Positions 3,216 to 52,637 of a DNA stretch of 64,000 nt are shown one piece after another. The DNA lies in NCBI GenBank assembly GCA_002310055.1, contig DBXS01000033.1, positions 40,822-104,821 of the forward strand. Reading direction: 5' to 3'. The notes under the pieces were generated by a model that saw only the letters and a list, made by a program, of their open reading frames with translations, was not told the origin of the DNA and did no database searches. Numbering within the stretch: position 1 is the stretch's first letter; the number at the start of each line of letters is the position of its first letter. This DNA is from Clostridiales bacterium UBA1206. Its GTDB lineage: Bacteria > Bacillota > Clostridia > Oscillospirales > CAG-382. The translations under genes were made by a program, and so were the position numbers.

Positions 3216-5166
<1,951 letters not shown>

Positions 5167-5223
5167 TGCCGCAGAACGCATTAAAGCGGTGAATTTACGC
5201 ACCGATTTAAAAAAGGTTTTTAC

Positions 5224-5262
5224 AAAGCTATGCCAATTAAAAAAGGCATAGCTTTCTTTTTT
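5224..5262 (+). terminator. Rho-independent terminator after groEL
   Basis: AAAGCTATGCC-aattaaaaaa-GGCATAGCTTT 11-bp stem followed by CTTTTTT. Confidence 0.85.
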
Positions 5263-5290
5263 GCTTACCCGTTTTGCGTAAAGAAGGTGC

Positions 5291-5346
5291 TTGTCTGAAA
5301 ACTTCGACTGCCGTACGACCGTACGGCGACGCTCGTTTTCAGACAA
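5291..5346. other. Nested long hairpin in non-coding DNA
   Basis: TTGTCTGAAAAC (5291-5302) pairs with GTTTTCAGACAA (5335-5346). It encloses an inner 7-bp stem GCCGTAC-gacc-GTACGGC. No T-run follows. Confidence 0.6.
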
Positions 5347-5385
5347 AATTCCCTCGCTTTACTGCGTTCTGCCTCGTGACGCCGC

Positions 5386-5480
5386 AGCGTTCGGTTACGC
5401 TATCCGGAATGTGGGCGGAAAAGGCGGAAATGACGCCGGAGCGTTGGGTTACGCCCGCCGGAATAAAGGCGGGAAAACGT
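5386..5480. repeat. Degenerate tandem direct repeat, about 54-bp period
   Basis: AGCGTTCGGTTACGCTATCCGGAATGTGGGCGG at 5386 and AGCGTTGGGTTACGCCCGCCGGAATAAAGGCGG at 5440. About 27 of the first 33 nt are identical. Confidence 0.55.
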
Positions 5481-5565
5481 CTGCAAGGATGTCGGCTGCT
5501 CCCGTCTGTACTTTTGTGAATATAGCAGAAACGTCTATTTTTCAGAATCTCGCCGCTCCTTAAAT

Positions 5566-5634
5566 ATACTCCCGCGCCGCCGCCGGGCAGAGCGTAGCGA
5601 GGGACAGGCGTGGGCGGCGGTGGCGCGGGAGTAT
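5566..5634. other. Long GC-rich hairpin in non-coding DNA
   Basis: ATACTCCCGCGCCGCCGCC pairs with GGCGGCG(gtg)GCGCGGGAGTAT: 19 bp with a 3-nt bulge and a 28-nt loop. No T-run follows. Confidence 0.6.
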
Positions 5635-5712
5635 GAGAGGGAAGCTGCGGAATTTATGCTATACCCCCTCTTCCTCGCAGCGTTTGTGGGGGTATTCCAA
5701 GCGAACATTCAG

Positions 5713-5741
5713 TTGAAAAACGGCGGATTTTGTGTTATTAT
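5713..5741 (+). promoter_or_regulatory. Sigma-A type promoter for the sigma-fusion gene
   Basis: TTGAAA (5713-5718), 17-nt spacer, TATTAT (5736-5741). About 110-nt leader to ATG 5861. Confidence 0.55.
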
Positions 5742-5860
5742 CATATATAAGAACGGCAAAGAAGCAAAAATATTTACCGTGACCCAACCTTTTTGCGCTT
5801 TTTAGTATCTTATGGGTGAAAGGCGACAAAAGAACAAACAAGTCAAAGAAAGGAAAAAGG

Positions 5861-8437
5861 ATGAAAAACGTTTCCGCAATGAACGACGCAACGCTCGTTG
5901 AACTTACTCTTATAGGGAACGATTCGGCTTATGAAGAGCTTGTGAAACGGCATGAAAAAGCGGTCAAAGGCACCGCGTACAAAGTCACCGGAAATGCGTT
6001 TTCCGCCGAGGACGCTTCGCAGGACGCCTTTGTTTCGGCGTGGATGAATCTTTCTGCGCTGCGCGATCCTTCGCGGTTCAGACCGTGGGTATGTTCCATA
6101 GCAAAAAACTGCGCAAGGAGAGTTGTGGAAAACTATCACGCCGCCATCCCCGATATCAGTCTTTCTTTACTTGAAGACGCCGATCCCGAAAGTATCGATC
6201 GCGTCGCTTTTGAAAACGAGCAGAGCGCGTATTCCGATCTTCACGAAGCCGTCGAAGCGCTGGGCGGCAAGATCAGGGAGACCGTAAAGCTCCATTATTT
6301 CGAAGGTTTGTCTGTCGCCGAAATAGCCGCAAAACTGTCTCTTCCGGAAGGGACCGTTAAATGGCGGCTGAGCGAAGGGAGAAAACGACTTAGAAAGGGT
6401 TACGGTATTATGGAAAAAGAATACGACGAAAACGAGAAAATGGTGCGCAAAGTTATGCGCCAAATCGAACGTCTCAAACTGTGGCGGCTCAAAAACGATC
6501 GCTCCGGCTTTGAAGAGGAATTCAAAGAAGTCCTCGCAAGCGCGGAAGCGCTTGAGGATTCAAAAGAAAAGAGCCGCGCGCTTTCGGACGTGCTGATGAT
6601 GGGATATTGGTGGATCCCGGGAACCAGAAACGACGAAACGCTGGCAAGAATAAAGAAACACGCCGAAGAAAGCCGCAACGACGACGTTATGATGGAAGTA
6701 CTCGGTGGTGAAGCCGAGAATAAGAGCCCGCAAGAGATCATAGATCTTATAAAAGAAAAACAGATCCCCTACGTACAGGGATTGGGGATGAAGAAAACGC
6801 TGGGATATCTGCATTTTTGGCTGGGCGTCAAGCTGTTCGACGTTGGACGTTATGAAGAGGGTATCGAAAGCTATAAAGCGGTGCTATCCGTGCTTGGACC
6901 GACTGACGTTTATTACGCCAACGCTATCGCTGCAATACGTATAGAAGAAAAAGTGCGCGAAAAAGGGCTGAGCAGAAACGATGATTCTCTGGCGTTCAGC
7001 GCGTGCGGAGACGAATACCGCAGCATAGACGGAAAGCTCTGGTTCTGGCAGGAGCCGGGCTACAGCCGCGGCAGCCTGTGGTCTGCGAGCGAGCCGGGAG
7101 TATACTTTGCAAGTCTGTGCGATAGCCTTATTATCGAACCCGAAATGAAGGCGGGCGACGTCAAGACCGCGTCAGACGGCATAACAAAGCTCGTTTGCAA
7201 AAGCACAAACGCTGCCGTATCCACTCCTGCCGGAGTTTTTGAAAACTGCAGCGTCTTTGCCGTCAGCGAGAACGAAAAGTTTTTCGAAACGGCGTTTTGT
7301 CCGGGCGTGGGTATGGTATATCAAAAGATCACGAACACCATCGTGAACGAGCATTTCCTTAAGAAATATCATATAGAAGGCGGTTCGGGCCTGCTGCCGC
7401 TCGCCGCGGGCAACCGTTGGGAATACATCGCAAAAAATGCGTTCATAGCGGGCGAATTCGAAGATATATTGGAAATCACAGGTGCAGAGGACGGCAAGGC
7501 GGTCGCCGCTGCGTACGGATTCTCGCATCGCACCGGTTACGATGAGACTGCGTGGGCGGGCAATATGCTTAACGCGCGTCAGAATTACGCCGTGTGCGAA
7601 AACGGAAAAGAACGTCTTGTAGATATGAGGGAATGCTTTGCAAAGGCGTTGCCGCTCGCAAAGACCAAACGCGAAAAGACGCATACCCGTATAGCCGCCG
7701 GCGTTATGGAACGCATATTGAATACCGATCCCGAGTTCAATCCCGAATACGCCGAATGCGGACGCTGGAATTTCTTCCAAAGACATTTCGCCCGGCGCGA
7801 AGACGGCAGGACTGTGATCTGCGAAGATGAACGTATGTTTTCATTTGAATGGAAAAATATGGGCGGCAATATGGGCGAAAACGGCGTGGGGAAACGGCTG
7901 CTTTATAATATGCTGTACGGTATCGTTCAGGACGCTGCGGACTGTATGTGGTCGGATAAATGGACGCCCGGATACACGGAAAAACGTGATGTCGCGATTT
8001 ATAACAACGTCTGCAAGCTCGAGCTCACGGTGCTCGGCGAAGAGCGCGTGGAGACTCCCGCGGGGACTTTTGAAAACTGCCGGCACGTCGTTATGGAGCT
8101 GAGCAATTTACCCGCCGGATTGAGTTATCGCTCGGGACGTATGGAATGCTGGTACGCTCCGGGCGTGGGGATCGTAATGTTCAGCCGTCCTTTGAACAAC
8201 GGCGGTACCGATAACGTGAGCAACGTCTGGTATCTTACGGCGTACGAAGGCACGGGAGACGGATATTTCCCGATCAAAGACGGTCTCTTCCGCCGGTACG
8301 AACCAGAATACACCGAAGGCTGGAACGGCAGAGTGGAATATACTTATGTCGAAGACGAAAACGGCGTAGTCATATTCTTTGACCAGCTGGGAACGCAGGA
8401 CCGCGCCTCGTATGAAGCGGGGCTGAAAACTGAATAA
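5861..8437 (+). CDS. ECF-type sigma-70 family sigma factor fused to a large (about 670 aa) C-terminal domain of unknown function
   Basis: N-terminal 190 aa carries region 2 (DASQDAFVSAWMNL, FRPWVCSIAKNCARR) and region 4 (LHYFEGLSVAEIAAKLSLPEGTVKWRLSEGRKRLRKG). The remainder has a TPR-like stretch and two copies of TPAG[VT]FENC...PGVG[MI]V. No hydrophobic TM stretch is visible. ATG 5861 follows AAAGGAAAAAGG; the ORF opens at GTG 5816. Confidence 0.8.
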   Translation: MKNVSAMNDATLVELTLIGNDSAYEELVKRHEKAVKGTAYKVTGNAFSAEDASQDAFVSAWMNLSALRDPSRFRPWVCSIAKNCARRVVENYHAAIPDISLSLLEDADPESIDRVAFENEQSAYSDLHEAVEALGGKIRETVKLHYFEGLSVAEIAAKLSLPEGTVKWRLSEGRKRLRKGYGIMEKEYDENEKMVRKVMRQIERLKLWRLKNDRSGFEEEFKEVLASAEALEDSKEKSRALSDVLMMGYWWIPGTRNDETLARIKKHAEESRNDDVMMEVLGGEAENKSPQEIIDLIKEKQIPYVQGLGMKKTLGYLHFWLGVKLFDVGRYEEGIESYKAVLSVLGPTDVYYANAIAAIRIEEKVREKGLSRNDDSLAFSACGDEYRSIDGKLWFWQEPGYSRGSLWSASEPGVYFASLCDSLIIEPEMKAGDVKTASDGITKLVCKSTNAAVSTPAGVFENCSVFAVSENEKFFETAFCPGVGMVYQKITNTIVNEHFLKKYHIEGGSGLLPLAAGNRWEYIAKNAFIAGEFEDILEITGAEDGKAVAAAYGFSHRTGYDETAWAGNMLNARQNYAVCENGKERLVDMRECFAKALPLAKTKREKTHTRIAAGVMERILNTDPEFNPEYAECGRWNFFQRHFARREDGRTVICEDERMFSFEWKNMGGNMGENGVGKRLLYNMLYGIVQDAADCMWSDKWTPGYTEKRDVAIYNNVCKLELTVLGEERVETPAGTFENCRHVVMELSNLPAGLSYRSGRMECWYAPGVGIVMFSRPLNNGGTDNVSNVWYLTAYEGTGDGYFPIKDGLFRRYEPEYTEGWNGRVEYTYVEDENGVVIFFDQLGTQDRASYEAGLKTE

Positions 8438-8444
8438 GCAAACG

Positions 8445-8485
8445 AAAAAGTGCCGGAACCATTACGGGTTCCGGCACTTTTTTTC
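8445..8485. terminator. Bidirectional terminator between the sigma-fusion gene and tex
   Basis: AGTGCCGGAACC-attacg-GGTTCCGGCACT 12-bp stem with an A-run upstream and a T7 run downstream. Flanking genes are convergent. Confidence 0.85.
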
Positions 8486-10662: not shown

Positions 10663-13374
10663 TTATTTCTTCTTTTTCTTTTTGAAAATCAATGCGCACG
10701 CCGCCGCGCATATCGCCGCCGCGGCAGCCGCTATGCCTATGATGAGTCTGGGCTTGCTTCCGCTTTCTTCCGGTGCGGCTGTTTCCTCACTCTGCTCGGG
10801 CCCGCTTTCGGCCATGCTTTCTTCGGCAGAGCTTTCTTCGGAGCTTTCCTCGCCCGGATGATTGTAAGCGTACACCATGGCTTCGAGCTCGTCGCACAAC
10901 GCCTTGAGATGTATGGCGAAGACCCGTTCGCCGGCGAGATACCGTTTTATGGCGCGGATCTTCAGATTGATCTCCGTGTCGCCGCACTGTTCGGCGGCTT
11001 CCAGCACCGGCGTATAATCGAAAGCGACCTTGTAGACTTCGAATTCGCTGATGCCGCCGCTGTAATAGGTGTTGTACTGGCTCGCGTACCAGCGCTTGAG
11101 CTGGACGTATTTGACGTAACGCGCCCTGACCGGCTTGAATTCCACGGTCTCGGTCACGCGCCGGCCTTCTTCTTTTCCGCTCGCTTCAAAGACTTTTTCA
11201 AAGTTTTCGCCGTCTTCCGAAACATATAGCTCGAACGCCTGCACGGATTCGAAATAGTGTATGATTATTTTTGAAATATCGTAAACGTCGGCGAGATCGA
11301 CGACCATCCACTGGGTATCTTTCGACCTGTCGAACGAAAGGCGCGTGTTCATATCGCCGTCGACCGCCATCGGTTCGTTCAGCCGTCCGTCGTTGACTTC
11401 AAGTCCGCTTACCGTGACCTTTTTGCCCAAAGCCACGTTGCTTTCGTAAAGCAGATCGTTGAGCGATCCGCCCTCGGGTGCGAGAGTCAGATTTTCAACA
11501 ACGCAGTTTTCGCCGCCGATTCTTTCGAGCGGGAGCACGAACGACGAACTGTATTCCGCGGCTTTTCCGCCGGAAGCCAGCACGGGTTCGGAGACCCACT
11601 TGCCGTCGACTATCAGCACGGTCGAAGTCCTGTCGCCGTAAAGCCTGATATTGGTCTTTTCGCCCAAAGTCACGCCTCTGTCGAAGATATACGTCACGCC
11701 GCCGCGTTCAAAGCTCAGTTTGCCCGCCGCGTTGACGAACAGTTTTCCGTCTTTGCCTTCGGTTATCACGGCGCCTTTTTTGGTCACGGTCACGTCGGCG
11801 CTCATATAATACGGCCAGCCGTACGATATCGCTTTGCCTTCTTCGAGAGCTTTCGTCACATCGGCGTCGATCGCGTATTTGCGCCGCGCGGGGTCTGCGT
11901 TGCCGCCGCGGACCGATAATTTTTCAAAGCGCGAAATAAAGTTTTTGGCGCTTATCTTCGCGGTCTTGCTTCCGGTCCAGGTCTTTTCCGCCACAAGGCA
12001 GACCTGATAGCGGAGCCGGTCGAAAATCTCGAACACCGAAAAACCAGTCGAAGGTCTGACAAGATCGTTCCAAAGCGCAAAGCACGCGCCAAGCAGCTGT
12101 TTGTCGTTTTCGGCGACTTTTTTGCCGTTGTAGATGCCAAGGATATTCACGAACCACTTTGAATAAAGGTTGTTAAGATCGAAATAATCGGCGAATCCGT
12201 TTCCTCCCGGAACGCAGTAGAGTATGGGCCCGCAGGTGTTTATAATGTCGTAGCCCATATCCCACAGAACTTTGTGGTCCGAAAGTTCCACCGCCCAGTA
12301 GTTGCACTGCGAATCGCCCGAAACGGGCGTGCTGCCGTTGAAGCCCTTGCCGCCGAACGAACCCCAGAACCGGGTCGTATACCCGCGCGAACGCAGGTGT
12401 TTCATCAGCGCGTCGGTGTAGGCGCGCATCTCCTCGTTGTGGCCGGCGGGGTATTCGTCGGTGCCGAAATGGACCGTGTCGCCTATGAACACGGGCTCTT
12501 CGCCGGCGACGTATTCGTCCCACAGATCGCAGACGAATTTCAGCGTTTCGGGCTTGCTTATGTCAAGATGCGAATCGTCGAGCATTAGCTCGGGGACGGC
12601 TTTTTTAAAGCATTTGCTGTGCGCCGGAGTGTCTATCTCGGTGACGACGCTCACGCCGTATTCCCGCATGCGAAGCTGATATTCGCGGTAATCCTTTTTG
12701 CTGTAATGGTCTTCGGCGGTCAGCCCCGGTACGTCGCTTTCAAGACGGAAATAACCGTTGCCGTCGGACGAGTTGTCGTTTATATGCAGATGTATCTCGT
12801 TGAGCTTGAACCACGCAAAGTATTTGGTTATCTCCTCCACGTAATCGAGCGGTATCCAGGTGCGCGCCACGTCTATCATACCCGAGCGCAGTCTGTACTG
12901 CGGCACGTCGCGGACGTATCCGCAGGGCATATACCCGTCGTGGTAACAGGACTGTATCAGCGTGATGACGCCGTACAGCAGCGATATCTCTGTCGTGCCG
13001 CTTATGATCACGTTCGTTTCGGTCGCTTCAAGCGTATAGCCTTCGCCGCCAAGCGACGTGTCCGAAGAATGCGCAAGCACGATGTCGCCCGTGCGCGCTT
13101 CGCCCGCGGCAAAATCCACGCTTATAAACAGCATATCGTCAAAATAGCCGCGGATTATGTCTTTCTTCGCTTCCGAAAGCTCGGCGCCTTCGCTTAGAAC
13201 GATGCGCGCGCCGTCTTTTACGGTGAACGTTCCTTCTCCGCCGGTCCATTCGGTCACCGCGGGGATGACGTTGGGAGCGGGATTCGCCGTTCCGGCCGCC
13301 GAAGCGGGGACGGCGGGCAGGACCGCCGCAAAAAACAGCGAAGACGCGAGCATGAACGCTATATGTTTTTTCAT
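10663..13374 (-). CDS. Secreted, C-terminally membrane-anchored GH20-like beta-N-acetylhexosaminidase with F5/8 type C (discoidin) domain
   Basis: 903 aa. Signal peptide, GH20b-like N-domain (GEGYTLEATETNVIISG...LYGVITLIQS), catalytic-region motifs (NEIHLHINDNS, HFGTDEY), a discoidin-like block (AVDGDMNTRLSF...WMVVDL), an acidic SE-rich linker, one TM helix and a KKKKKK tail. Stop lies 13 nt before the tex start. Confidence 0.7.
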   Translation of the reverse strand: MKKHIAFMLASSLFFAAVLPAVPASAAGTANPAPNVIPAVTEWTGGEGTFTVKDGARIVLSEGAELSEAKKDIIRGYFDDMLFISVDFAAGEARTGDIVLAHSSDTSLGGEGYTLEATETNVIISGTTEISLLYGVITLIQSCYHDGYMPCGYVRDVPQYRLRSGMIDVARTWIPLDYVEEITKYFAWFKLNEIHLHINDNSSDGNGYFRLESDVPGLTAEDHYSKKDYREYQLRMREYGVSVVTEIDTPAHSKCFKKAVPELMLDDSHLDISKPETLKFVCDLWDEYVAGEEPVFIGDTVHFGTDEYPAGHNEEMRAYTDALMKHLRSRGYTTRFWGSFGGKGFNGSTPVSGDSQCNYWAVELSDHKVLWDMGYDIINTCGPILYCVPGGNGFADYFDLNNLYSKWFVNILGIYNGKKVAENDKQLLGACFALWNDLVRPSTGFSVFEIFDRLRYQVCLVAEKTWTGSKTAKISAKNFISRFEKLSVRGGNADPARRKYAIDADVTKALEEGKAISYGWPYYMSADVTVTKKGAVITEGKDGKLFVNAAGKLSFERGGVTYIFDRGVTLGEKTNIRLYGDRTSTVLIVDGKWVSEPVLASGGKAAEYSSSFVLPLERIGGENCVVENLTLAPEGGSLNDLLYESNVALGKKVTVSGLEVNDGRLNEPMAVDGDMNTRLSFDRSKDTQWMVVDLADVYDISKIIIHYFESVQAFELYVSEDGENFEKVFEASGKEEGRRVTETVEFKPVRARYVKYVQLKRWYASQYNTYYSGGISEFEVYKVAFDYTPVLEAAEQCGDTEINLKIRAIKRYLAGERVFAIHLKALCDELEAMVYAYNHPGEESSEESSAEESMAESGPEQSEETAAPEESGSKPRLIIGIAAAAAAICAAACALIFKKKKKK

Positions 13375-51083: not shown

Positions 51084-51107
51084 CCACTAAAAGAAGGCGG
51101 TGAAACA

Positions 51108-52637
51108 ATGAAAGGTTCGCAAATCGTCGTCGAGTGCCTCAAAAGCCACGGCGTAACGCATATATTCGGTTACCCCGGCGGAAGCGTGCTTCCGGTCTAT
51201 GACGCGCTGATCGGCTCCGGCATAACGCATATACTTTCCTCGCACGAGCAGTTCGCCTGCCACGCGGCGGACGGCTACGCCCGCGCAACGGGAAAAGCCG
51301 GCGTGGTGCTCGCCACCAGCGGACCTGGCGCCACCAATCTGGTCACGGGCATCGCCAACGCGTATATGGATTCCATCCCGCTCGTCGCGATAACCGGCAA
51401 CGTAAAGCTTTCGCTCTTGGGGCACGACGCGTTCCAGGAAATAGATATCACCGGCGTCACAATGCCTGTCACCAAACACAATTTCATAGTCAAATCCGCG
51501 TCCGAGCTCGCAAGCGCCTTAAAGCGCGCGTTCCTCATAGCGAATTCGGGGCGCAAAGGACCGGTGCTGGTCGATATACCCACCGATATATTCGATACCG
51601 AAACTCAGGAATGCGACGTGACGCCGCTCCCCGCGCGCGAATACCATCCGTCCGCGGAAGAGATCGAAAACGCCGTAAACGCGGTCAACGCCTGCAAGTA
51701 CCCGTTCATCTGCGCGGGCGGGGGAGTCATAGCTTCCGAAAGTTCAGACGAACTTTTTGCGCTGGCTCACCGCATAAACAGTCCGGTCGCCGTGACCGCT
51801 ATGGGCAAGGGCGCGTTCCCCGCGCACGATACGCTCTACGCCGGAGTCGTGGGTATGAACCTTGGCGAACAGGCAAAGCGCGCGCTCAAAAAGTGCGACC
51901 TGTTTATTGCAATGGGCATACGTTTTTCCGAACGTCTTATGAAAAACGTGGTCTCGTTCGCGCCGAATGCAAAGATACTGCATATGGATATCGACGCCGC
52001 CGAGACCGGAAAGAACGCCGAATATCACACCCGCGTGGTGGGCGATATGAAAGAGACGCTCAAATCGCTTCTTCCGCGCGTAAATGAAAAGCCTTACAAG
52101 GGCTTTGAGGGCGGAAAACCGCCGGCGGAAGGCTTTTTCGGCGTTATCGAACGCCACCGCCGCGGCGTTATCGTCACCACCGAAGTCGGCCTGCATCAGA
52201 TCGAGGCGGTCAACCGCATAGGCACCGAACAGCCGCGCACCTTCATAACCAGCGGCGGGCTCGGGACTATGGGTTTCGGGCTCCCAGCCGCTATAGGAGC
52301 GTCTGTCGGCACCGGCAAGCGGGTGATCAACGTCGCCGGCGACGGCAGTTTCAATATGAATATGCAGGAACTTTCCACCGCCGCGCGTTACGGACTCCCC
52401 GTGACTCAGGTTGTCGTGTACAACGGTTCGTTGGGCATGATAGAAAAATGGCAGAACGAGCAGTACGGCGGCAGGATATTCCAGACCAAACTGCCGCGTA
52501 TAGAATATTCCGCGCTGTCGCGCGCTTTCGGCGTGCCGTACGCGCACGCGTCGACCGAAAAAGAACTCGATAACGCGCTGTCCGACGCGGAGACGGGGTC
52601 CGGTCCGTATCTTATCGTGTGGGAGGGGCAGATATGA
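51108..52637 (+). CDS. ilvB: Acetolactate synthase, large (catalytic) subunit
   Basis: Start at ATG 51108 (MKGSQIVVECLKSHGVTHIFGYPGG). ThDP motif GGLGTMGFGLPAAIGA...GDGSFNMN. Confidence 0.92.
   Translation: MKGSQIVVECLKSHGVTHIFGYPGGSVLPVYDALIGSGITHILSSHEQFACHAADGYARATGKAGVVLATSGPGATNLVTGIANAYMDSIPLVAITGNVKLSLLGHDAFQEIDITGVTMPVTKHNFIVKSASELASALKRAFLIANSGRKGPVLVDIPTDIFDTETQECDVTPLPAREYHPSAEEIENAVNAVNACKYPFICAGGGVIASESSDELFALAHRINSPVAVTAMGKGAFPAHDTLYAGVVGMNLGEQAKRALKKCDLFIAMGIRFSERLMKNVVSFAPNAKILHMDIDAAETGKNAEYHTRVVGDMKETLKSLLPRVNEKPYKGFEGGKPPAEGFFGVIERHRRGVIVTTEVGLHQIEAVNRIGTEQPRTFITSGGLGTMGFGLPAAIGASVGTGKRVINVAGDGSFNMNMQELSTAARYGLPVTQVVVYNGSLGMIEKWQNEQYGGRIFQTKLPRIEYSALSRAFGVPYAHASTEKELDNALSDAETGSGPYLIVWEGQI

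Follow-up and report, generated by a model that had tools for sequence, protein, structure and literature searches.

A conserved family of ECF sigma factors with a large C-terminal extension in uncultured gut and rumen Clostridia

Introduction

ECF sigma factors with a fused regulatory extension represent one-component systems in sigma-factor signalling, and their independence of a partner protein makes them appealing as orthogonal genetic switches. To our knowledge, few types of ECF extension have been studied, namely SnoaL, TPR and Cys-rich extensions.

In the ECF42 group, a TPR extension of ∼200 aa is essential for activity, its proximal part alone is predicted to contact sigma-4 (PMC8999054), and regulation is thought to act via conformational change (PMC8999054, PMC7826278); the members characterized so far come from Streptomyces and Pseudomonas (PMC8999054). 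Extensions of ECF41 contact the linker between the sigma domains (PMC8999054). Larger tails have been described, with up to ∼400 aa in ECF48, ECF52 and ECF53 and up to ten times the length of the sigma core in Planctomycetes (PMC8999054, PMC7671368), and very large ECF extensions are already known in other phyla. A preliminary description of the locus studied here had put ECF extensions at roughly 100 to 200 aa, a figure that is right for ECF41 and ECF42 but too low for these larger cases. DUF3108 and comparable Firmicutes extensions are absent from the main text of the ECF reclassification. The locus reported here lies in a 64,000-nucleotide stretch of a contig from Clostridiales bacterium UBA1206 (hereafter “the window”).

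Results and Discussion

The gene and its surroundings

The sigma-extension gene is one intact open reading frame encoding 858 aa (ATG at 5861, TAA at 8435 to 8437); the open frame itself spans 5816 to 8437. The features of the locus are as follows.

5861 to 8437, + strand: coding sequence of an ECF sigma factor with a C-terminal extension; full-length homologues share 42 to 93% identity
5713 to 5741, + strand: sigma-70-like promoter (TTGAAA-17-TGtTATTAT, extended −10), 10 of 12 matches in a consensus scan
5782 to 5815, + strand: conserved ECF-type promoter, ACCCAACCTTT-N13-(c)GTCTTATA, with the same motif and spacing in orthologues
8445 to 8482, no strand assigned: bidirectional intrinsic terminator with a 16-bp stem and A/T runs on both sides, common to the gene and the convergent Tex-like gene

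The preliminary description had read this gene as an ECF core fused in one frame to a tail of ∼670 aa, standing alone between a promoter and a bidirectional terminator with no anti-sigma gene adjacent. The single intact frame bears out the fusion, and both the promoter at 5713 to 5741 and the terminator at 8445 to 8482 were found. The neighbors are groES-groEL upstream (+ strand) and a Tex-like gene downstream (− strand), and no anti-sigma gene was present around the gene in the window. Across 83 loci of the family, no neighboring gene family was conserved, unrelated ECF-fusion paralogues apart; the lack of any recurring neighbor implies that there is no anti-sigma partner. An Rfam scan of the 690-nt intergenic region upstream of the gene returned nothing near any gathering score.

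It is also worth noting that groESL adjoins the family gene in the window and at two further loci (L005 and L041), and hrcA-grpE-dnaK does so at another two (L001 and L006). A heat-shock neighborhood was considered and rejected as too weak, being seen in three lineages where about one would be expected by chance.

An ECF-type sigma core and its promoter

The ECF-type sigma-2/sigma-4 core occupies residues 27 to 177 of the protein, and the remainder amounts to ∼670 aa.

5939 to 6121, + strand: Sigma-70 region 2, residues 27 to 87; Pfam PF04542 (Sigma70_r2), 45.8 bits (cut-off 24)
6236 to 6391, + strand: Sigma-70 region 4, residues 126 to 177; PF08281 (Sigma70_r4_2), 41.7 bits (cut-off 25.7), and PF04545

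The core was also recognized by PF07638 (Sigma70_ECF; 25.9 bits, cut-off 21.1) and by NCBIfam TIGR02937 (sigma70-ECF; 77.7, cut-off 42.9), while the NCBIfam equivalog and subfamily models (SigM, SigY, SigW, SigE and others) all scored far below their cut-offs. No Pfam match to Sigma70_r1 or Sigma70_r3 was found in the 858-aa protein at E ≤ 1. Mean pairwise identity across the family is 70% in region 2 and 69% in region 4; the linker between them (∼30 residues, disordered at 93 to 122 in the AlphaFold2 model) averages 39%. When the full-length model was searched with Foldseek, sigma cores dominated the matches, region 2 of the core matching ECF sigma structures and SigG1 (7qh5) aligning through the sigma core only. 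Regions 2 and 4, a short linker, the absence of regions 1.1 and 3 and an AAC/CGT-type promoter place the protein, as judged from its sequence, in the ECF (group 4) sigma factors.

The ECF-type promoter consists of a −35 element ACCCAACCTTT at 5782 to 5792 and a −10 element GTATCTTAT at 5805 to 5813 (family −10 consensus cGTCTTATa). By regular expression, 54 of the 73 upstream regions of orthologues contained the bipartite motif, ∼30 to 85 nt before the start codon. With a position weight matrix at ≥20 bits, 80 sites were found across the window and the 83 loci, compared with one in shuffled sequence, and the site at 5782 to 5815 was the sole match in the 64 kb of the window, where none was expected. 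Searching 185,579 species genomes for the exact pattern yielded 88 matches, 42 of them directly upstream of a family member. This bipartite AAC/CGTC-type promoter of nearly all orthologues is a new finding of this analysis. Its presence on nearly every orthologue implies positive autoregulation, in which the promoter would be recognized by the sigma factor encoded downstream; its conservation also suggests a sigma core with conserved specificity, typical of ECF sigma factors. The sigma-70-like site at 5713 to 5741 might possibly provide weak basal transcription of the gene; in 17 of 66 orthologues, a similar site precedes the ECF-type promoter (2 of 66 in shuffled controls).

Searches for a wider regulon identified no member of it. 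The window held the gene's own site plus one of 11.8 bits at 51087 to 51121, which is at noise level, and in 1.2 Mb of flanking sequence the motif scored at family genes and at paralogous sigma genes alone. Across all GTDB species genomes, the non-self matches in Clostridia were isolated ones, at an ABC transporter (L135) and another ECF fusion (L162).

Architecture of the extension

The tail falls into three parts, a helical domain (residues 194 to 367) and two homologous beta-rich modules (377 to 560 and 632 to 847). AlphaFold2 predicted the full-length protein at a pLDDT of 86 and the beta region at 90.5, the TPR-like and beta domains being folded and the linkers that tether them disordered.

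6401 to 6646, + strand: proximal extension, residues 181 to 262; a linker with the motif YGiMEKtYdENE and then the first helices, conserved like the sigma domains
6440 to 6961, + strand: all-helical TPR-like domain, residues 194 to 367, nine helices; AlphaFold2 pLDDT about 90 to 98
6989 to 7540, + strand: beta-rich module 1, residues 377 to 560, with TPAGVFENC...FCPGVGMV; AlphaFold2 strands, homologous to module 2
7553 to 7723, + strand: helical insert between the modules, residues 565 to 621, with a conserved TKRxKxHT motif
7754 to 8401, + strand: beta-rich module 2, DUF3108-like, residues 632 to 847, with TPAGTFENC...YAPGVGIV; Pfam DUF3108_like

The highest 19-residue Kyte-Doolittle mean over the 858-aa protein was 1.23, below the level of ∼1.6 usual for a membrane helix, in keeping with the earlier view of a tail free of transmembrane segments. 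A signal-peptide-like N-terminus is impossible, as the protein begins with its sigma domain. NCBIfam gave no match anywhere in the extension; neither a SnoaL domain, a Cys-rich motif nor a zinc-finger anti-sigma domain was found in it with Pfam and NCBIfam, and the HxxxCxxC motif is absent from the 858-aa sequence. A search of PDB sequences with the single extension sequence likewise gave no match, and family profiles alone did so.

Directly after sigma-4, the linker YGIMEKxYDENE (residues 181 to 193) is 67% identical across the family, and residues 179 to 191 have an AlphaFold2 pLDDT below 50 despite this high conservation. Over residues 181 to 262, identity per 20-residue block is 62 to 76%, compared with 64 to 83% in sigma-2/sigma-4 blocks, and we regard this stretch as a candidate sigma-contacting or regulatory segment. 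Foldseek matched the TPR-like domain to MamA, BtubC and LGN, and a family profile of residues 181 to 372 run against PDB sequences retrieved TPR proteins only (consensus-TPR proteins, E = 2.5 × 10−12) and no anti-sigma factor; Pfam likewise gave no anti-sigma or zf-HC2 match. The TPR-like stretch of the preliminary description is real, yet a single repeat (residues 316 to 344) is detectable by sequence: TPR_2 is below threshold in the 858-aa protein (E = 0.006 to 0.03) and matches 11 of 15 relatives, and relatives are matched by TPR_1, TPR_2 and TPR_8.

The internal duplication proposed earlier holds at the spacing given, T455 (nucleotide 7223) and T732 (nucleotide 8054) lying 277 aa apart. 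Profile-profile alignment with hhalign relates module 1 to module 2 with a probability of 98.2% (E = 3 × 10−14; pairwise BLASTP E = 3 × 10−5), and the alignment takes in the trailing Y.EG.G..P..G motif. In module 1, C463 is invariant and C480 occurs in 51 of 56 sequences. The DUF3108_like model scored 24.0 bits against the full protein and 27.2 bits against the beta region alone (cut-off 27), and the second DUF3108 Pfam model (of the PF11306/PF21347 pair) scored 23.7 bits against the full protein (cut-off 26). Among relatives, DUF3108_like matched 19 of 21 (34 to 40 bits reached; best E = 2.2 × 10−12). The DUF3108 alignment covers the Pfam profile in its C-terminal quarter alone (positions ∼135 to 183 of 199). 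A family profile also matched the DUF3108 crystal structures (4fvs_A, E = 6 × 10−6; 3fzx_A, E = 6 × 10−5).

By Foldseek, the beta region had no convincing neighbor in the PDB (best TM-scores 0.1 to 0.4), and neither 3fzx nor 4fvs was among its 50 best matches. TbpB, PR-10 and outer-membrane barrels were rejected as candidates for the fold on low probability or low TM-score, as was StfQ, a di-domain ARO/CYC protein (TM 0.16 to 0.24 despite a probability of 0.91). Neither a ligand-binding pocket nor a known type of sensor fold could be recognized in the extension. The earlier suggestion of an extension of uncharacterized type stands insofar as Pfam and NCBIfam matched it to no described ECF extension class, and has to be amended insofar as its first third is of TPR type and its beta modules carry the DUF3108 hairpin.

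Distribution and conservation

The fusion architecture of ∼850 aa was found in >230 protein clusters (90% identity) and at least 80 species-level genomes, all of them uncultured gut or rumen Clostridia. In public records, the family is labelled merely “sigma-70 family RNA polymerase sigma factor”. An exhaustive profile search of 1.84 billion representatives returned 186 proteins at E < 10−30; among the matches listed, those in proteins of ∼820 to 890 or 1,044 to 1,153 aa begin at residue ∼340 to 440. The tail was never found without a sigma core: three short entries examined as possible sigma-less members (P0121, P0186 and P0204) were rejected as truncated fragments. Two beta modules are present here and three in some relatives. 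The extension is under strong purifying selection: its domains average 45 to 56% pairwise identity, and its proximal 80 residues are as well conserved as the sigma domains (∼70%).

Comparison with described ECF systems

Going by published descriptions, the closest known case appears to be ECF42 (Streptomyces venezuelae Sven_0747/4377/7131, Pseudomonas putida ECF-10), which likewise combines a sigma core with a soluble, TPR-first extension, does without an anti-sigma factor and has its best conserved segment in the proximal part of the extension. Neither Pfam nor NCBIfam recognizes the tail as a whole. In contrast to the ∼200 aa of TPR repeats alone in ECF42, the 670 aa found here comprise a helical domain and then ∼490 aa of DUF3108-like modules, and the hosts are uncultured Clostridia rather than Streptomyces or Pseudomonas. 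We propose that this tail, three times as long as that of ECF42, includes a new beta-module sensor region.

The groups with SnoaL-like extensions (ECF41, ECF56, ECF205, ECF294 and ECF295, including M. tuberculosis SigJ and S. tsukubaensis SigG1) also join a soluble regulatory domain to the core in one polypeptide and lack an anti-sigma factor, their extension folding back onto the sigma-2/sigma-4 linker. However, that extension is a SnoaL fold of 120 to 150 aa, and no SnoaL Pfam match was obtained here at E ≤ 1. ECF48, ECF52, ECF53 and IutY of ECF243 resemble the present family in carrying a long C-terminal extension (up to ∼400 aa) on an ECF core, but theirs has a zinc-finger anti-sigma domain and one or two membrane helices, neither of which was seen here, and activation is by proteolysis. 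Planctomycete ECF factors (ECF57 and duplicated clusters; Pinto and da Fonseca 2020) have extensions several times the size of the sigma core, as here, although those are poorly conserved and heterogeneous and apparently represent random capture (PMC7671368), whereas one architecture is conserved here across hundreds of species.

DUF3108/DUF3108_like proteins (3fzx and 4fvs, from Bacteroidetes) share the TPAGxF.C ... (A/C)PxVGIV beta-hairpin signature. Known members are ∼215 aa long and labelled by their depositors “putative exported protein” or “putative lipoprotein”; the module here is instead part of a cytoplasmic sigma-factor fusion, in which it is duplicated.

A proposed mechanism and its alternatives

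We favor, at a probability of roughly 55%, an anti-sigma-independent one-component ECF sigma factor that is controlled in cis by its own extension. The protein would be a functional ECF (group 4) sigma factor for which no separate anti-sigma factor is needed, and it would be transcribed from its own ECF-type promoter, perhaps with a weak housekeeping promoter in addition, giving positive autoregulation. A flexible, sequence-conserved linker would join the sigma-2/sigma-4 core to the 670-aa cytoplasmic extension, whose proximal TPR-like part may contact sigma-4 and the sigma-2/sigma-4 linker region and so set whether the core can engage RNA polymerase, in the manner of ECF41 and ECF42. The input domain for an intracellular small molecule or partner protein would be formed by the two DUF3108-like beta modules (three in some relatives). 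We infer that the extension regulates the core, in a direction that may be either inhibitory or required for activity. In an exploratory and underpowered mean-field coupling analysis (effective n = 139), pairs 127-267 and 127-270, which link the start of sigma-4 to the helix at 258 to 271, were in the top 30. The preliminary description had already suggested a one-component sigma factor gated by a large cytoplasmic domain; our results support it in part, as none of the three outcomes named there as refuting it was seen and no conserved neighbor points to an anti-sigma partner, while the gating itself is what we infer. More tentative, and on balance doubtful, is the fuller proposal that the tandem modules are a new class of input domain in the cytoplasm, responding to a hydrophobic metabolite or partner protein and linked directly to RNA polymerase by the TPR domain as adaptor, in an undescribed ECF group restricted to uncultured gut and rumen Oscillospirales-type Clostridia.

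Other explanations were weighed against control in cis. The window comes from a metagenome-type assembly, and split or truncated genes occur in a small number of relatives (L028/L101, L100 and L137), so that the fusion might reflect an assembly error or frameshift joining an ECF gene to a downstream gene, or a decaying pseudogene. This is effectively refuted by the recurrence of the same frame in >230 of the clusters formed at 90% identity and, uninterrupted, in all 80 of the 80 best species-level loci, which come from independent studies and hosts, and by conservation that is even over the whole length at identities of 37 to 93%; no frameshift or stop, which the preliminary description had named as fatal to its reading, separates the sigma domain from the tail, and the fused frame is kept in hundreds of independent assemblies. 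A real fusion could still be a pro-sigma factor, in which a fused soluble inhibitor (an ancestral anti-sigma factor) is removed by cleavage at the linker (181 to 193) to release an active sigma factor of ∼20 kDa. A linker that is 67% identical and nevertheless modelled as disordered (pLDDT about 38) would suit a recognition or cleavage motif, and proteolytic activation of ECF fusions is known for IutY and has been proposed for ECF48, ECF52 and ECF53 (PMC8999054). We nonetheless consider it unlikely: the known proteolysis-activated fusions are membrane-anchored and have zinc-finger anti-sigma domains, whereas this protein has no membrane helix, no HxxxCxxC and no anti-sigma match in Pfam or the PDB in its proximal region; no protease gene is a conserved neighbor in the 83 loci, and 670 conserved residues are more than a simple inhibitor needs.

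Alternatively, the extension might tether the holoenzyme to some other protein or cell structure or have a biochemical function of its own, leaving the sigma factor to be controlled at transcription alone. TPR domains are generic scaffolds for protein-protein interaction, DUF3108 is without known function, and the gene's own autoregulatory promoter, with a housekeeping-type promoter in some orthologues, makes transcriptional control possible. This, too, seems improbable. If no post-translational brake existed, positive autoregulation would be bistable or runaway, and where an ECF sigma factor lacks an anti-sigma factor some other brake is normally present. Furthermore, no catalysis-like set of invariant residues stood out in the extension alignment (judged from a reading of the invariant columns), and the tail was never seen as an independent protein.

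Implications

The family, which is widespread in abundant, uncultured gut and rumen Clostridia, adds to the described ECF sigma factors an extension that is large, highly conserved and confidently modelled, in which a TPR adaptor is joined to duplicated DUF3108-like modules. Its conserved promoter makes the system directly testable and offers a handle on the regulon in complete genomes. The extension probably makes the protein a self-contained signal sensor. If the tandem modules do form a new input domain, they would provide the first functional context for DUF3108-type modules and represent a new kind of one-component sigma switch.

Gene architecture and genomic setting

The gene for the ECF-type sigma factor lies downstream of groES-groEL on the same strand and is followed by a convergent Tex-like gene. 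A ribosome-binding stretch (GGAAAAAGG) precedes its ATG at 5861.

5816–8437, + strand: open reading frame; probable start ATG 5861, product 858 aa
8445–8482, both strands: bidirectional terminator with a 16-bp stem, common to the sigma factor gene and the Tex-like gene

Within the sigma core, Sigma70_r2 (residues 27–87) and Sigma70_r4_2 (residues 126–177) both exceeded Pfam thresholds, and the sigma70-ECF superfamily model TIGR02937 matched the entire N terminus (77.7 bits; cut-off 42.9). Of the equivalog models (SigM, SigY, SigW, SigE and others), none came near its cut-off for this protein, and neither region 1 nor region 3 was detected. No membrane helix was found in the 670-residue extension (maximum 19-residue Kyte-Doolittle mean of 1.23). 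A preliminary description by a model, made from this sequence alone, was factually correct on the gene, including the coordinates of its two TPAGxFENC modules, the lack of a TM segment and the bidirectional terminator. Further downstream, a 903-aa protein (10663–13374, − strand) looks, from its translation, like a cell-surface protein: its N terminus resembles a signal sequence, and a hydrophobic anchor at the C terminus ends in KKKKKK.

Distribution of the fusion

The fusion of sigma core and extension is real, and an assembly artefact is excluded. The extension alone, searched against 5.8 billion proteins, returned at least 233 clusters, and most of those listed were ∼850 aa with precomputed sigma domains. 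A GTDB scan with one genome per species identified 465 relatives, the best 80 of which covered nearly the entire query where the contig permitted (37–99% identity). An exhaustive search of 1.84 billion representatives with a beta-region profile recovered 186 proteins (E < 1e-30); among the matches listed, in proteins of ∼820–890 aa or 1,044–1,153 aa the beta-region match began at around residue 340–440. At least one long variant carried a third DUF3108-like module (DUF3108 and DUF3108_like being Pfam families PF11306 and PF21347), and other long variants an extra C-terminal helical region. Because the shorter beta-region entries that were read were truncated fragments, the tail was never seen without a sigma core in the extension and beta-region protein searches. 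A few MAG copies were split into two ORFs or truncated (L028:8001–10646, on a contig shared with L101; L100; L137; L-numbers denote loci from other genomes), reflecting either assembly frameshifts or occasional pseudogenes. All carriers were uncultured Clostridia from the gut of human, ruminant, rabbit or chicken, variously labeled Oscillospiraceae, Acutalibacteraceae, Candidatus Apopatosoma, Candidatus Flemingiibacterium, Faecousia and similar. The window was 99% identical to L004 (rumen MAG Ruminococcus sp. RUG11813), and some genomes held two paralogues.

Structure and conservation of the extension

A confident AlphaFold2 model (mean pLDDT 86, pTM 0.71), based on 56 members of the family, divided the protein as follows:

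residues 9–93: sigma-2 helices
residues 93–122: disordered sigma-2/sigma-4 linker
residues 114–180: sigma-4
residues 179–191: second linker, low confidence
residues 194–367: helical domain of nine helices
residues 377–560: beta-rich module 1
residues 565–621: helical insert between modules
residues 632–847: beta-rich module 2, then a terminal helix

A second model of residues 368–858 only was better than the full-length one (pLDDT 90.5, pTM 0.83). The helical domain is TPR-like: Foldseek aligned it with MamA, BtubC and LGN, and the family profile (residues 181–372) matched consensus-TPR structures (E = 2.5e-12) through one repeat only (316–344), the same stretch previously quoted as TPR-like. 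Comparison of sub-alignments indicates that modules 1 and 2 are true duplicates, as had been proposed (hhalign probability 98.2%, E = 3e-14 for an 88-column alignment that takes in the trailing Y.EG.G..P..G motif; pairwise BLASTP E = 3e-5).

The DUF3108/DUF3108_like signature in module 2 was borderline in the protein itself (24.0–27.2 bits against a cut-off of 27), with DUF3108_like clear in relatives (19/21, best E = 2.2e-12), and the family profile matched solved DUF3108 structures (4fvs, E = 6e-6; 3fzx, E = 6e-5). DUF3108 has no known function. The proposed input region is still essentially uncharacterized at the fold level, because the DUF3108 alignment was confined to the final quarter of the Pfam profile and Foldseek of the whole beta region gave no convincing PDB neighbor. 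The TPAGxFENC cysteine of each module (C463, nt 7247–7249; C740, nt 8078–8080) was invariant in 56/56 sequences, and DUF3108 crystal-structure sequences have a cysteine at the same position (TPAGTFDC, TPAGAFYC); a second cysteine (FCPGVG; C480, nt 7298–7300) was conserved in module 1 only (51/56).

Mean pairwise identity among the 56 members was ∼70% in sigma-2 and sigma-4, 39% in the linker joining them, 56% in the helical domain, 45% in module 1, 51% in the insert and 53% in module 2. The proximal ∼80 extension residues (181–262) were 62–76% identical, equal to the sigma domains, the pattern expected if the core and the proximal extension function jointly, and one that parallels ECF42.

Promoter and neighboring genes

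In the vast majority of orthologues, alignment of the upstream regions revealed a bipartite motif, ACCCAACCTTT-N13-(c)GTCTTATA(g)GTGAA, located ∼30–85 nt ahead of the start codon. The upstream features are:

5291–5346: hairpin, 12-bp stem (groEL-sigma intergenic region)
5377–5422 and 5431–5476: 46-nt imperfect direct repeat (same region)
5566–5634: GC-rich hairpin, 20-bp stem (same region)
5713–5741: sigma-70-like promoter site, upstream of the bipartite motif
5782–5815: bipartite promoter motif, the only match in 64 kb (0 expected by chance)

ECF promoters generally combine an AAC-containing −35 with a CGTC-like −10 at such spacing, and because of this architecture we read the motif as a putative autoregulatory promoter of the family. 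A position weight matrix scan (≥20 bits) of 83 loci plus the window gave 80 sites versus 1 in shuffled sequence, nearly all the family's own. When every species genome was scanned for the exact pattern, 88 matches were obtained, and 42 of these immediately preceded a family member. This family promoter is newly identified; it could not be seen from a single sequence, and the promoter noted in the preliminary description was probably the sigma-70-like site. Comparable sites occurred in 17/66 orthologues versus 2/66 shuffled controls, and this site may therefore give basal expression.

The pattern CCCAACCTTT-N13-15-GTCTTATA also occurred at roughly 30 loci of Bacteroidota (Chitinophagaceae, Saprospiraceae, Flavipsychrobacter and others; within L084–L171, e.g., L099:3511–3542, L124:5656–5687, L110:913–944, L112, L141, L160, L163), usually 10–100 nt upstream of genes whose products have signal-peptide or lipoprotein-like N termini and in two cases ahead of genes for short ECF sigma factors (∼190 aa); these loci appear to form an unrelated ECF regulon whose promoter is almost the same. 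Most of the structured groEL-sigma intergenic region (5170–5860, 690 nt) had a conserved counterpart in the sister MAG L005 (96–98% over ∼545/691 nt; weaker or absent around 5465–5612), with no second copy in the window and no Rfam match.

When all ORFs within three genes were clustered across 83 loci, no neighbor recurred besides unrelated ECF fusions at about a dozen loci; there is therefore no anti-sigma candidate, in agreement with the earlier observation that none is adjacent. These second-family fusions (∼515–560 aa, ∼380-aa soluble tail; L012, L021, L023, L034, L037, L053, L062, L073, L083, with three in tandem at L083:1812–7376) lay within a few genes, and their sigma cores were 23–30% identical to the present one over the greater part of its length, with local values of up to 46%. 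At L037, L062 and L073 a similar promoter (CCAACCTTTTT-N-GTGTCTATA), 32–33 nt upstream, suggests cross-regulation or shared specificity. Adjacency to groES-groEL (window 3228–5166, L005, L041) or divergence from hrcA-grpE-dnaK-dnaJ (L001:11–5666, L006) involved three lineages and may be coincidence, since chance alone would produce about one.

A proposed one-component sigma factor

A one-component ECF sigma factor, as first proposed, is the best-supported reading, and that proposal is supported in part: the analysis shows the architecture, solubility, internal duplication, conservation, lack of a partner gene and promoter, and we infer that the extension gates the core. The extension would determine in cis how far an intact, autoregulated core has access to RNA polymerase, with the TPR-like proximal domain as adaptor and the duplicated beta modules as input domain; the extension-core contact, the direction of control, the signal and the regulon are likewise what we infer. 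An exploratory mean-field coupling analysis, underpowered at 245 sequences (effective number 139), recovered plausible pairings between helices of the TPR-like domain and placed couplings 127–267 and 127–270 (sigma-4 start versus extension helix 258–271) in its top 30. The linker YGiMEKtYdENE falls within the highly conserved 181–262 yet is disordered in the model, and its cleavage could possibly release sigma from a pro-sigma; however, the fusions for which this is known are anchored in the membrane and carry zinc fingers (PMC8999054), and no protease gene is a conserved neighbor. A rival to cis gating would make the extension a scaffold or effector tail and leave control entirely to transcription.

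Described ECF extensions include SnoaL-like (ECF41, ECF56, ECF205, ECF294, ECF295), TPR (ECF42), Cys-rich (ECF238, ECF287, ECF288), DUF1835 (ECF264) and multi-membrane-helix (ECF263) types and membrane-anchored zinc-finger fusions (ECF48, ECF52, ECF53). The size range of 100–200 aa in the preliminary description was incomplete, because very large, poorly conserved extensions are known in Planctomycetes (PMC7671368). No homology of the extension to any named type was detectable with Pfam or NCBIfam. The nearest functional analogue is ECF42, in which the proximal extension alone is predicted to contact sigma-4 (PMC8999054), but the present family does not share the ECF42 architecture because, beyond the TPR part, it has another 490 residues of beta modules. 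This ECF architecture is real, widespread and unstudied; unsurprising in principle to ECF specialists, it is set apart by its size, conservation, domain content and taxonomic niche, and can now be tested directly.
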